DNA of 63,888 bases, counting the filler, from Reclinomonas americana ATCC 50394 (taxonomy: Eukaryota), in NCBI GenBank assembly GCA_048213135.1. It is 18 parts of 18 records of this genome, joined end to end, with 100 filler letters (N's around TTAATTAATTAA, not from the genome) between each part and the next. Parts side by side here need not be neighbours in the genome. Positions count along the whole stretch, not along the records: positions 32,758 to 37,766 come from AFZH01023507.1; positions 37,867 to 40,716 come from AFZH01023508.1; positions 40,817 to 46,214 come from AFZH01023509.1; positions 46,315 to 48,516 come from AFZH01023510.1; positions 48,617 to 50,101 come from AFZH01023511.1; positions 50,202 to 53,342 come from AFZH01023512.1; 12 more parts are not named here. The stretch is one strand, 5' to 3'. Shown here in pieces: positions 32,758-51,785 of this stretch. The position numbers and the translations under genes were made by a program. Below the pieces are notes generated by a model. That model was not told the DNA's origin, did not search any database, and saw only the letters and a program-made list of their open reading frames with translations. Each line of letters starts with the position of its first letter. Position 1 is the first letter of the stretch.

Positions 32758-33061
32758 GGAGGGCCACGATGGATATGTGGGCTCTGTTGCCGTGACTCCC
32801 GACGGTTGGCATGTTGTGAGTGGTGGTTATGACAGGATCTTGCGTGTGTGGTCCACTCCGTGTGGTCTCGCTGCCTGCGAGTTGGGCGCAGCACGCGAGG
32901 CAATGCGAGCCGTGCAGGAGATGCAGCGTGTAGAGATTGTTGACGACGATGAAGAATCAGATGCGCAGTGTCTGCCAGAATTGGTGTTGCGGTGCTTCAT
33001 TGTAGAGGAAGCGGCGCTTGTGCTGCACCGGCGCAGCATGGACCCAGAGCCGCACTTGTGA
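32758..33061 (+). CDS. WD40 array copy W1 (3' part only)
   Basis: Last WD40 blade plus the conserved tail WSTPCGLAA...CLPELVLRCFIVEEA...PHL*. Confidence 0.85.
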
Positions 33062-33323
33062 AAAAGGAGAGGGAGGAGGGGTAGTTGTTTGATTTCATGT
33101 TGTAGTCTCGCTGCGTGTTTTGCGATGACCCAAAGTGAATGTTGTGCACCTTGTTGACGCACCTGCATTCGACGTTATCGATGAAAGCCTGCTGCAAGTC
33201 GTCGTGCGTGAGTCGTGAGCGAGGAAGTGCCAGCGTCGTCCTGTCCCGGTAGTTCACGCGCGCTGATCGTTCCCCCTCACTTCTCTCTTTTCTCTTTCAC
33301 TCTCTCTGCTCTCTCCATTCCTC

Positions 33324-34666
33324 ATGTCCCTCTCTCCCGTCCTCCTCCCCTCCAAGCACATTTCTGGTCACACGGACACCGTAACGTGTGCCGCCATCAC
33401 TCCCAATGGTCAACACATCGTCTCTGGGAGTACGGACTGCACAGTGCGCGTGTGGTCACTGGCGACTGGAGCTGAAGTGCGACGACTGGAGGGACACAAG
33501 CATCATGTAAACTCTGTCGCCGTCACTCCCAATGGCCAGCGCATCGTGAGTGGCAGTTCTGACCGAACGCTGCGAGTGTGGTCGCTAGAGAGTGGAGAAG
33601 AAGTGCGTATTTTGAAGGGCCACACTGATGAAGTGGGGCCTGTTGCCATCACTCCCGACGGGCAGCATGCTGTCAGTGGGAGTTATGACAAAACTGTGCG
33701 TGCGTGGTCACTGGCGAGGGGGATCCGGAAGGAGGTGCGACTAATGGAGGGGCACACTTGGTGGGTGATCTCTGTCGCCATCACGTCGGATGGTCTCTAC
33801 ATTGTATCTAGTAATGTGAAGATGCACTGCGACAGTTGGTCATGCAAATCGGAGTCTCTACTTACATTTCGCGACTTGCGCAAGACACAACTTTTGCCCC
33901 ACACTCGGGTAAAGGGTCAAGGGCCCAGGAAGCCAACGGTCAAGAGCAAAGGGTCAAGGGTAGGGGCCCCCGGGTTAAGGGTTAAGGGTCAAGGAGCTGC
34001 ATCCTGTCACATTCACCGTCGGGTATAAACTAATCAGCGGAAGCAATGACAGGACTGTGCGGGTGTGGTCGCTGGAGAATGGCGCCGAAGTGCGAAGGCT
34101 GGAGGGTCACAGAGGTGGGGTGTATTCTGTTGCCATTACACCCAATGGTCAGCACATTGTGAGTTGCAGTCACGACGGGACCATGAGAGTGTGGTCAATG
34201 GCGACTGGGATCCGGAAGGAGGTGCGACGGTTTGAGGGACATACTCTTGACACGATTCGCATCTCCATCGCCCCCGACGGTGAGCACGTTATGAGTGGAG
34301 GTAATGTTTGACCCGATTGTGCGAGTGTGGTCACTGGCAAGTGGGAGAGAGGTGCTACAGCTTGAGGGACACGCTGGAGGTGTGCGCTCTGTGGCCGTGA
34401 CTCCCGATGGTTGGCATGTAGTGAGTGGTGGTGAAGACTACACTTTGCGAGTGTGGTCCACTCCGTGTGGCCTTGCTGCTTTCGAGCTCGATACAGCACG
34501 AGCGGCGATGCGAGCCGTGCAGGAGACGCAGCGAGAAGCTGTGGTTGACGAAGATGAAGAATCGGATTCACGGTGTCTGCCAGAGATTGTGCTGAGGTGC
34601 TTCATTGTGGAGGAGGCGGCGGTGGTGCTGCATCGGCGCAGCATTGATCCCGAGTCGCACTTGTGA
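33324..34666 (+). pseudogene. WD40 array copy W2, disrupted
   Basis: 229-bp insertion in blade 4 and a further frameshift near 34305. Split into ORFs 33324..34028, 34057..34311 and 34295..34666. Confidence 0.88.
33806..34034 (+). mobile_element. 229-bp insertion, non-autonomous Helitron-like, with TTAAGGG/TCAAGGG repeats
   Basis: Removing it restores ATT GTC AGC GGA AGC as in the paralogs. Ends are A|TCTAGTAATG and CGGGTATAAACTAA|T (TC...CTRR between A and T). No TIR or long TSD. Confidence 0.6.
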
Positions 34667-34963
34667 ATAAGAGAAGAGGATGGCAGAAAAGAAAGAAAAA
34701 GAGTTGCCCTTCATATATATGTTCTCTGCTGAACAGATGAACCAGTTGTGCCTGCTTTTTTGATCCAGAATACACCTGCATTCGATGCGAGCAAGACACT
34801 GACTGCTGCTCGTTGTGGTGTTGATGGGTGTGGTGCGCAAGGAAGTGCGATGAATGTCCAACGTTGTCCTCGTCCCGCGTTTCACGCACACGCAGACGCA
34901 CACATCCGCAGAGTTGATTGTTGCTTCTCTCTCACTCCCTGTCTGCTCTCCTCTCCCTTCTCC

Positions 34964-50068: not shown

Positions 50069-50201
50069 AACATGGGAAGGGCGAGAGAGAGAGAGAGAGA
50101 GNNNNNNNNNNNNNNNNNNNNNNNNNNNNNNNNNNNNNNNNNNNNTTAATTAATTAANNNNNNNNNNNNNNNNNNNNNNNNNNNNNNNNNNNNNNNNNNN
50201 N

Positions 50202-50292
50202 TCTAGTGGAGATTGTGCTGCGCTGCTTCATTACGGAGGAGGCGGCGCTTGTGCTTCATCGGCGCAGCATGGACCTAGAGTCGCACTTGTGA
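50202..50292 (+). CDS. WD40 array copy W16 (3' tail only)
   Basis: LVEIVLRCFITEEAALVLHRRSMDLESHL*. Confidence 0.8.
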
Positions 50293-50672
50293 GAGGAAAG
50301 AGAGAGGGATGAGAGAGAGAGTTGCCTTTTTTGTTTTGTGCATTCTTTTCGCGATAGCTCAATGCAATGAACGTGTTGTGCCTGCTTGTTGATCCAGAGT
50401 GCACCTGCATTCGACGCGAGCAGTGTCAAGGTCGCTGTTGCGATCTAGGTGTGATGCGCAAGGAAGTGCTTTGTCAAGTCCATCGTCCTGGTCCCGCGTC
50501 CACACAGGCCCACACACACTCAGAATCACGCACACACGCACACACACACACGCACGCACGCACGCACGCACACACACGCACCCCAGACTGCCAGAGTTTG
50601 AGCCTCTCTGTTTCTTCTCTCTCTCTGTGCTCTCCCTACTCCCTTGTCTCCTCTCCCTCCCCTCCCTTCCTC

Positions 50673-51785
50673 ATGTCCCTCTCTCCCTCTCGTCTCACTC
50701 TCCTGCTCTCCAAGCGAGTCACTGATCGCACTGGCCCTGTGGCATGTGTCGCCATCACTCCCGATGGTCAGCACATCGTCTCTGGGAGTACAGACAAGAC
50801 TGTGCGAGTGTGGTCCCTGGCGACTGGAGCTGAGGTGCGACGACTGGAGGGACACACGTGCTATGTGAACTCAGTCGCCGTCACTCCCAATGGCCAGCGC
50901 ATCGTGAGTGGCAGTCATGACCATACAGTGCGCGTGTGGTCACTTGAGAGTGGAGAAGAAGTGCGACGGTTGCACGGGCATACTGGATGGGTGATTGCTG
51001 TTGCCGTCACTCCCGACGCGGTTCACATTGTAAGCGGGAGCAGGGACTGCACTGTGCGTGTGTGGTCGATGGCGAGTGGAGAGGAGGTGAGGCGGTTTGA
51101 GGGGCACACTGGGGGAGTGAACTCTGTCGCCGTCACGCCGGATGGTCTCTACGTTGTCAGCGGAAGCAATGACAGGACTGTGCGAGTGTGGTCGCTGGAG
51201 AATGGCGCCGAAGTGCGAAGGCTGGAGGGTCACAAAGGTGAGGTGCTGTCGGTTGCCATAACACCCGATGGTCAGCACATTGTGAGTTGCAGTCCCGCCG
51301 AGACTATGAGAGTGTGGTCGATGACGACTGGCAAGGAAGTGCGACGGTTTGAAGGACACACTCATAACAAGTTGCACGTCTCCGTCACCCCCGATGGTGA
51401 GCACGTTGTGAGTGGAGGCAACACTGCTGACCCAATTGTGCGAGTGTGGTCACTGGCAAGTGGAAGAGAGGTGCAACAGTTGAAGGGACACACTGGATTC
51501 GTGTTTTCCGTGGCCGTGACTCCCGATGGTCAACATGTCGTGAGTGGTAGTTATGACAATACTTTGCGAGTGTGGTCCACTCCGTGCGGCCTCGCTGCAT
51601 TTGAGCTCTACACAGCACGGGCGGCGATGCGGGCTGTGCAGGAGATGCAGCGAGATGACGAGGGCGAGGACGACGAAGAGCCGGATTCGCGGTGTCTTCC
51701 AGAGATTGTGTTGCGCTGCTTCATCGTGGAGGAGGCGGTGGTGGTGCTGTATCGGCGAAGCACGGAACCGGAGTCGCACTTGTGA
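50673..51785 (+). CDS. WD40 array copy W17 (last of the array)
   Basis: MSLSPSRLTLLLSKRVTDRTG, 7 repeats, tail CLPEIVLRCFIVEEA. Followed by a truncated spacer and a convergent gene. Confidence 0.88.
   Translation: MSLSPSRLTLLLSKRVTDRTGPVACVAITPDGQHIVSGSTDKTVRVWSLATGAEVRRLEGHTCYVNSVAVTPNGQRIVSGSHDHTVRVWSLESGEEVRRLHGHTGWVIAVAVTPDAVHIVSGSRDCTVRVWSMASGEEVRRFEGHTGGVNSVAVTPDGLYVVSGSNDRTVRVWSLENGAEVRRLEGHKGEVLSVAITPDGQHIVSCSPAETMRVWSMTTGKEVRRFEGHTHNKLHVSVTPDGEHVVSGGNTADPIVRVWSLASGREVQQLKGHTGFVFSVAVTPDGQHVVSGSYDNTLRVWSTPCGLAAFELYTARAAMRAVQEMQRDDEGEDDEEPDSRCLPEIVLRCFIVEEAVVVLYRRSTEPESHL

Follow-up and report, generated by a model that had tools for sequence, protein, structure and literature searches.

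A window of 63,888 bases from Reclinomonas americana ATCC 50394 (assembly GCA_048213135.1), the whole stretch of DNA analyzed here and composed of 18 contigs joined by 100-base spacers (N44-TTAATTAATTAA-N44), was found to carry a head-to-tail array of WD40 genes on 6 consecutive, co-oriented contigs (total span 32758-53342). Each protein of the array is modeled as a closed 7-blade WD40 propeller followed by a constant 2-helix tail of about 70 amino acids (aa), and diversifying selection on the top face of this propeller has good but not final support. We consider it probable, though well short of certain, that the array encodes recognition proteins that stand alone and belong to a lineage-specific family amplified in tandem; an immune-type role is less certain than this family-level reading.

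The propeller was identified by both profile searches and a structural model. Copy c5 (38001..39119, + strand; intact, 372 aa), which was used for the model, matched the Pfam WD40 family (PF00400) in 7 stretches with an E-value of 2e-76 and 249.6 bits (cut-off 27), and the best 25 of 47 matched families were all propeller families. Seven GH...WS blades and the tail were present in all 11 aligned copies, with blade 1 of c7 partly missing at a contig edge, which agrees with an initial annotation of this DNA that had given each complete copy 7 repeats and a tail of about 70 aa. The AlphaFold2 model of c5, built from the alignment of the 11 copies, reached a pLDDT of 86.9 and a pTM of 0.83 and contained 28 strands, the first of which is N-terminal (residues 11-16, LLPSK.I), lies directly before blade 1, and, judging from WD40 architecture, probably closes the propeller ring. 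Two helices (303-330 and 342-366) were modeled after the propeller at lower confidence (block means 50-67). The best Foldseek matches, 5yzv, 7big, and 2ymu, were 7-blade propellers aligned over ~290 columns with a target-normalized TM of 0.97, a root-mean-square deviation of 1.1 Å, and 37-39% identity, and all Foldseek alignments, none longer than 313 columns, ended before the tail. Within the tail, 27 of 72 alignment columns were invariant, and an acidic linker of variable length lies between the helices. The array open reading frames (ORFs) consist of propeller and tail only, and NACHT was found in the window only in 2 separate genes.

Variation among the copies was concentrated at a few positions of the blade. 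With the G of GH counted as position 1, per-position entropy was highest at positions 4, 5, 7, 23, and 25; DSSP analysis of the model placed positions 4, 5, and 7 in the stretch that runs from strand D to the beginning of strand A, with positions 23 and 25 in the B-C turn. By established WD40 anatomy, the D-A and B-C loops make up the top face of the propeller, and the Podospora anserina study describes the top face in the same way (PMC1805685). Compared with the remaining positions, the variable positions were enriched in Trp (7.1 vs. 2.7%), Tyr (6.5 vs. 0.4%), and Asn (8.1 vs. 1.0%); they were also rich in Gly, and blade 6 had an extra 2-residue insert in its B-C turn. For each blade, 7-10 distinct combinations of the 5 residues were counted among 10-11 copies. 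The contrast drawn in the initial annotation between a near-invariant scaffold and freely varying top-face residues is borne out by these entropy peaks, and all of the variable motifs that it had listed (TGAVMF, TDMVLS, TYYVNA, TWWVNS, NNWVLS, and DGYVGS) were found in the copies.

We analyzed selection with codon models fitted by our own maximum-likelihood code (GY94, F3x4, pruning on the IQ-TREE topology), together with tree-free Nei-Gojobori counts. Under M0, ω was 0.44. Model M2a (lnL -6238.85) was favored over M1a (lnL -6276.76) with a likelihood-ratio test statistic (LRT) of 75.8 and an ω2 of 3.7 on 7.4% of sites, and M8 was favored over M7 (8 beta classes, proportional branch lengths) with an LRT of 102 and an ωs of 3.1 on 10% of sites. 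All 4 partitions of the alignment, each with its own tree, favored M2a (LRT 13.0, 19.4, 33.2, and 7.1). As a null, 19 data sets simulated under the fitted M1a were put through a reduced procedure and gave LRT values of at most 4.38; the real data, treated identically, gave 74.3. Codon alignment, site models, and mapping onto a predicted propeller had been proposed in the initial annotation; mapped in this way, the 11 sites with P>0.95 comprised 9 at positions 4, 5, 7, 23, or 25, 1 in the blade-6 B-C insert, and 1 at position 16 in an A-B loop.

The tree-free counts pointed in the same direction. The proportion of nonsynonymous differences (pN) at 35 hypervariable codons was 0.50, compared with a proportion of synonymous differences (pS) of 0.34 over all blades, and 53 of the 55 pairs had a hypervariable pN above the global pS; hypervariable dN was 1.77 times global dS (bootstrap 1.47-2.15). 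Positions were pooled for these counts because per-position dS, with few synonymous sites at each position, was too noisy and hence unusable. Purifying selection was identified on the tail (ω 0.27) and on the scaffold (ω 0.29).

The array itself bears the marks of duplication in whole units. Neighboring copies within contigs are all on the + strand with stop-to-stop distances of 1392-1605 nucleotides (nt), and at most 4 copies stand on a single contig (2 contigs), as expected from the head-to-tail units of ~1.4 kb, up to 4 per segment, described in the initial annotation. The nearest neighbor of a blade in another copy was the blade of the same index in 75 of 76 cases, and mean blade nucleotide distance was 0.207 for the same index vs. 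0.36 for different indices. The spacers, 0.3-0.4 kb long, are homologous between units, the one between c5 and c6 (39120..39505, +) being an example. They begin purine-rich and continue through a T-rich block, conserved blocks, and a (CA)n run to a CT-rich tract immediately upstream of the ATG. Spacer subtypes alternate along the array, with a mean spacer identity of 0.63. Because blades group by index and spacers are homologous, growth took place by whole-unit duplication from a 7-blade ancestor: the 1.4-kb units were copied complete with their spacers, and at times two or more in one event. Short mosaic (conversion) tracts were identified among copies in 16 of 55 pairs (permutation p<0.02), and the mode of evolution is birth-and-death with conversion at homologous positions, unlike the blade shuffling of Podospora.

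When a profile built from 13 tails was run against 1.84 billion representative proteins, 3 matches were obtained. The first is a 116-aa protein derived from an expressed sequence tag (EST) of the jakobid Reclinomonas americana, with the same last blade and tail and 69% identity to the best window copy; being EST-derived, it indicates that at least one organism transcribes a member of the family. The other 2 relatives, of 394 and 381 aa, have far more diverged propellers and share the tail core (...PD.RCLPE(M/I)(V/I)LRCF(I/L)VE(E/D)...), so that the architecture of propeller with tail is older than the array. Searches of the tail against the ESM Atlas gave no usable match and against viral contigs no match, and word-indexed protein searches with the tail region gave none at E<=0.001 (34 near-length and 23 shorter candidates). 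Two loci with a 20-aa, 60% match were found in metagenome contigs; one of them (L001) is bacterial with the match in an off-frame ORF, and was set aside as a chance match. The single match in prokaryote genomes, in a metagenome-assembled genome of Desulfuromonadales, was short and apparently also due to chance. We further considered Gcp1-3, Pex7-like WD40 proteins of the mitochondrial type II secretion system (miT2SS) set of jakobids and heteroloboseans, as candidate relatives; in a crude motif test, the tail motifs LRCFI, LRCFL, and RCFIVEE were absent from 6 supplementary files of PMC8134430.

Several observations weigh against the reading of a diversifying recognition family. The codon models were run in our own code and not in PAML or HyPhy. 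The hypervariable codons have a pS of 0.53, so their own Nei-Gojobori ω is only 0.91, about neutral and not above 1. The 2 youngest pairs have no excess at variable sites, with pN 0.024 vs. pS 0.133 in c9/c12 and 0.071 vs. 0.100 in c10/c14. The tree is star-like with low support. Recombination inflates the LRT of site models, gene conversion is present among the copies, and the partitions lessen this problem and do not remove it. The hypervariable set was picked from the same data, so that the test for site enrichment is partly circular. Contiguity of the array depends on contig order, support for transcription comes from the EST-derived relative and not from the window's own copies, c2 is broken, and the conserved start of c10 is out of frame. 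The diversifying repertoire claimed in the initial annotation is supported to the extent that the top-face variation fits positive selection.

Under the favored reading of a recognition family, scaffold and tail would be held constant by selection and amino acid change on the top face would be favored, so that each copy would present a different binding surface on a constant chassis. Each copy may bind a different ligand through its top face, and the tail may couple all copies to one common partner or place. The targets would be non-self or fast-changing, and the array would act alongside NACHT-WD40 receptors with the same blade type. Provided that the copies are expressed and differ in the ligands they bind, a unicellular eukaryote would here possess a recognition repertoire that is compact and genetically simple, and the propellers would amount to a naturally occurring set of binders built on a single scaffold.

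We consider it unlikely that the array proteins are instead housekeeping substrate or cargo adaptors with a regulatory role, binding many endogenous substrates, with the tail acting as a ubiquitin-ligase docking box or an organelle-import signal. The layout recalls WD40-SOCS-box adaptors and the tail is strongly conserved, but none of 13 tails matched any Pfam family at E<=10, F-box and SOCS-box included, and the tail had no match among the sequences of solved structures (PDB). In a variant of this explanation, the proteins are peroxisomal by way of their last tripeptide, which in 15 tails is SHL (11; for example, 39108-39116), SRL (2), or PHL (2). The PTS1 peroxisomal import signal has the consensus [SAC][KRH][LM], for which acidic upstream residues are unfavorable; SHL and SRL, at the end of 13 of the 15 tails, fit it, whereas the residues before the tripeptide are acidic. 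Further, the 3 tail relatives end in MYL, DLR, and LWW, so that the family as a whole is not marked by this tripeptide. Adaptors of conserved endogenous substrates would also rarely be expected to have a binding face under positive selection.

A split NLR-type system is a more specific form of the recognition reading, and a rather improbable one. Here, a free-living protist would hold a germline library of detachable sensor propellers, each of which would capture a different non-self ligand on its variable top face, and the tail would dock on a common executor, either the NACHT-WD40 proteins encoded nearby or another partner. If this were true, duplication of a sensor gene of only 1.4 kb, in place of a receptor of 5 kb, would suffice to broaden recognition in trans. 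The array offers a test case for whether NLR-type sensing can be divided between sensor and executor genes.

It is similarly improbable that the array is an ordinary young tandem family in which relaxed loops drift neutrally while conversion affects the scaffold. The own ω of 0.91 at the hypervariable codons and the absence of an excess in the youngest pairs would fit such drift, as would the pseudogene c2, and conversion may have homogenized the scaffold and so depressed global dS. Against it stand the LRT values of M2a and M8 (75.8 and 102, compared with at most 4.4 in the 19 null simulations), the agreement of the 4 partitions, and a variable-site pN that exceeds not only the synonymous divergence but also the divergence of the spacers. 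The enrichment of Trp, Tyr, and Asn at the variable positions, as in binding sites, also argues for a recognition surface over drift.

The 2 NACHT-WD40 genes of the window bear on a further explanation. NLR A (1508..6274, +) begins with a helical N-domain, followed by NACHT, a stretch resembling pentapeptide repeats, and some 17 WD40 blades (17-18 extracted); NLR B (24580..29090, -) is its paralogue with 16 blades, and the 2 share 79% nucleotide identity over 2.7 kb, upstream region included. NACHT was identified with 38.5 bits in NLR A and 36.4 bits in NLR B (cut-off 26.7), and Pfam matched 13 and 15 WD40 stretches, respectively; the pentapeptide stretch in both was read by eye, without Pfam confirmation. 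Relative to NLR A, the reading frame of NLR B shifts by one base near 27642 (-), between the NACHT and WD40 parts, which reflects either a pseudogene or a sequencing error. The N-terminal ~280 aa of the NLRs had no Pfam match, and the AlphaFold2 model of the N-domain (pLDDT 35) was too low in confidence for use. Closest to the N-terminal and NACHT part of NLR A were NACHT-pentapeptide-WD40 proteins of Linnemannia, with 28-29% identity over 66% of the query, and actinobacterial ones were also found. The initial annotation had set the array next to an NLR; the window holds 2 such genes, although on other contigs, and adjacency follows from contig order only.

The initial annotation had also offered the array as a donor pool for the NLR sensor domain, that is, as silent or semi-silent cassettes converted into the WD40 domains of the NACHT receptors, which we now regard as very improbable. 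The array and both NLRs have the blade consensus and the variable positions in common (entropy Spearman 0.71), with NLR WD regions 46-59.5% identical to c5 over whole propellers; conversion tracts occur among array copies; and the internal blades of NLR B are homogenizing or duplicating (minimum nucleotide distance 0.127). Tested on the 2 NLRs of this window, however, the longest exact match between an array copy and either NLR WD region was 37 nt (medians 20-21), compared with within-array matches that had a median of 35 nt and ran to 229 nt; in the absence of long shared tracts, a donor pool finds no support. Array and NLR blades were separated by distances of at least 0.198 (mean 0.372), and array blades kept their index in the 75 of 76 cases given above. 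The copies have also retained their start codons and open frames, and purifying selection acts on their tail, which is in neither NLR (tblastn across the window).

Sixteen distinct pieces of array genes were identified, compared with the ~17 genes of the initial annotation, in which the tandem family was real and the count slightly too high. The pieces comprise 10 uninterrupted full-length ORFs (363-417 aa), 1 edge-cut copy, 1 disrupted copy, and 4 edge fragments, with frames walked back. With one tail as a tblastn query, 13 full tails and 2 edge-cut tails were found, all on the + strand and only within 32,852-51,782. All coordinates that follow are on the + strand. The first contig (32758-37766) carries c1 (32759..33061), a 3' fragment at the contig edge with the last blade, tail, and stop codon; c2 (33324..34666), full-length and a probable pseudogene; c3 (34964..36067), an intact 367-aa 7-blade WD40 protein with tail; and c4 (36345..37469), intact with 374 aa. 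The second (37867-40716) carries c5 and c6 (39506..40615; intact, 369 aa). On the third (40817-46214) are c7 (40818..41822), an open frame with ~35 first codons cut off by the contig edge; c8 (42137..43252; intact, 371 aa); c9 (43553..44644; intact, 363 aa), which is near c12 (global pS 0.13); and c10 (44823..46076), whose open frame begins at an upstream ATG and spans 417 aa, and which is near c14 (94% nucleotide identity). The fourth (46315-48516) holds c11 (46316..46405), a 29-aa tail fragment at the contig edge; c12 (46741..47853; intact, 370 aa); and c13 (48150..48516), a 5' fragment cut off by the contig end after about 120 aa, with variable residues of its own. The fifth (48617-50101) holds c14 (48947..50068; intact, 373 aa), and the sixth (50202-53342) holds c15 (50203..50292), again a 29-aa tail fragment at the contig edge, and c16 (50673..51785; intact, 370 aa), the last copy, after which low-complexity non-coding DNA follows.

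The open frame is kept in 10 of 12 full or near-full copies. In c2, an insertion of ~228 nt (about 33806-34036) interrupts blade 4 and a later in-frame stop lies near 34300; the inserted sequence occurs only once in the window and lacks obvious terminal inverted repeats. Copy c10, among those with an open frame, has its conserved ATG (44957) out of frame through one extra C in a C-run (44957-44980) relative to the otherwise identical start of c8, and its frame is open only from the upstream ATG at 44823; the extra C reflects either a genuine shift or a homopolymer error. The uninterrupted full-length ORFs are c3, c4, c5, c6, c8, c9, c10, c12, c14, and c16, and protein identity of the copies to c5 was 68.6-75.5%.

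If order and orientation were random, the chance that the 6 array contigs would be consecutive and co-oriented among the 18 is P ~2e-5; the contig order therefore most likely reflects scaffolding, from which contiguity itself is only inferred. Contig ends compared with the rest of the array gave no match above 95.3% identity, so that the edge fragments are further copies and not overlaps, and c13 matched best to c8 and c10 at only 85-86% identity, so that the c12-c13 segment is not an allele of c9-c10. One small sequencing run, of a kind not stated, gave a 323-letter contig on c9 with 1 differing letter and a chimeric-looking 379-letter contig, and has no bearing on depth, copy number, or expression. 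An assembly artefact, in which most copies would be haplotigs or misassembled reads of a few genes, might be suspected from the fragmented assembly, with contigs that break inside copies or at microsatellites, and from the close pairs c10/c14 and c9/c12, but is extremely unlikely given that copies differ from c5 by 24-31% in protein, that only c10/c14 matched at >=150 nt and >=90% nucleotide identity in the self-comparison of the array, that contig ends do not overlap as described, and that up to 4 different copies stand on one contig.

Elsewhere in the window, Pfam matches among 38 long ORFs were limited to the NACHT region of NLR A and a DDE transposase, with one ORF with a fibronectin type III domain (fn3) besides, and an Rfam scan of the whole window gave no family at gathering score. 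The DDE_1 (pogo/Tc5-type) transposase ORF (22759-23781, -) sits immediately downstream of NLR B, with which it shares a contig, and the long ORF with its one fibronectin type III domain (53752-55494, -) is on the contig after the array. Low-complexity runs are abundant, including (CA)n, (CT)n, and purine-rich tracts; together with the few Pfam matches and the empty Rfam scan, they give the DNA a eukaryotic appearance. Minisatellites were identified at 17447-17969 (17 bp x 30), 12511-12903 (105 bp x 3.7), and 31510-31846 (133 bp x 2.5; 97% match), one of which ends a contig. The 5' regions of both NLRs contain perfect tandem duplications, at 1291-1448 (79 bp x 2.0) and 29108-29246 (67 bp x 2.1), each with 100% match. 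A fragment at 6235-6393 resembles the post-NACHT region of NLR A (54%, 56 aa), spans the NLR A stop codon, and may be a remnant of another NLR copy. Both NLRs begin MAFEVVEEAVRLRC (1532-1573; 29025-29066 (-)), which by eye recalls the reversed tail core LRCFIVEEA (tails, e.g., at 39030-39080) and may be due to chance.

Among known proteins, the array shares the blade consensus GH...VSGS.D.T(V/I)R(V/L)W with highly repetitive bacterial propellers (2ymu; 5yzv, from Thermomonospora) and the designed WRAP-T propeller (7big). Unlike the array proteins, 2ymu and 5yzv are domains of large bacterial STAND-type proteins and 7big is designed, and the tail is absent from all of them; to our knowledge, propellers of this type do not occur as a tandem gene array. 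NACHT-pentapeptide-WD40 STAND proteins, from Linnemannia (Mortierellomycota) and, as TIR-NACHT-pentapeptide-WD40 proteins, from actinobacteria, combine PF05729, PF00805, and PF00400; they are akin to the NLRs and not to the array genes, and no tail-bearing stand-alone propeller has been reported among these relatives. WD40-SOCS-box proteins of the WSB type are substrate adaptors of cullin ligases, with a 7-blade propeller and a short helical C-terminal docking box. The array shares this general layout of propeller and C-terminal helical box, with a tail that has no SOCS-box match in Pfam, and we know of no multi-copy WSB families under diversifying selection. In the literature, we found no description of stand-alone hypervariable WD40 gene arrays, preprint supplements lying outside the search, and no paper joining "jakobid" and "NACHT."

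The closest parallel in how variation is distributed is provided by the HNWD/NWD genes of Podospora anserina (het-d, het-e, and het-r), which carry very similar 42-aa WD40 units C-terminal to NACHT (PMC1805685, PMC2873952, PMC4986451). Positive selection there is reported for 2 residues of the d-a loop and 2 of the b-c turn, at the top of the propeller (PMC1805685). These pairs, (7,9) and (25,27), equal array positions 5,7 and 23,25 if HNWD numbering starts 2 residues earlier, a correspondence that upholds the placing of the variable sites on the top face, as in fungal HNWD, by the initial annotation. The array also resembles HNWD in exchange between family members and in its association with NACHT NTPases. 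In contrast to HNWD, the array propeller is a separate gene without NACHT; it always has 7 blades, whereas the number in HNWD is variable with a minimum of 10 for activity; its blades keep their index (75 of 76), whereas HNWD repeats are shuffled among positions and genes; blade identity within an array copy has a mean of 0.567 and a maximum of 0.786, compared with about 85% in HNWD (PMC4986451); and the array genes stand head to tail with a constant C-terminal tail. Since 4 of 5 HNWD features (NACHT fusion, ~85% identity, shuffling, and variable number) are absent from the array, it would work like HNWD without being a member of that family. Hypervariable WD40 faces under diversifying selection are a known principle in fungal NACHT receptors; what is new here is their occurrence in free-standing, arrayed genes with a rare constant tail.

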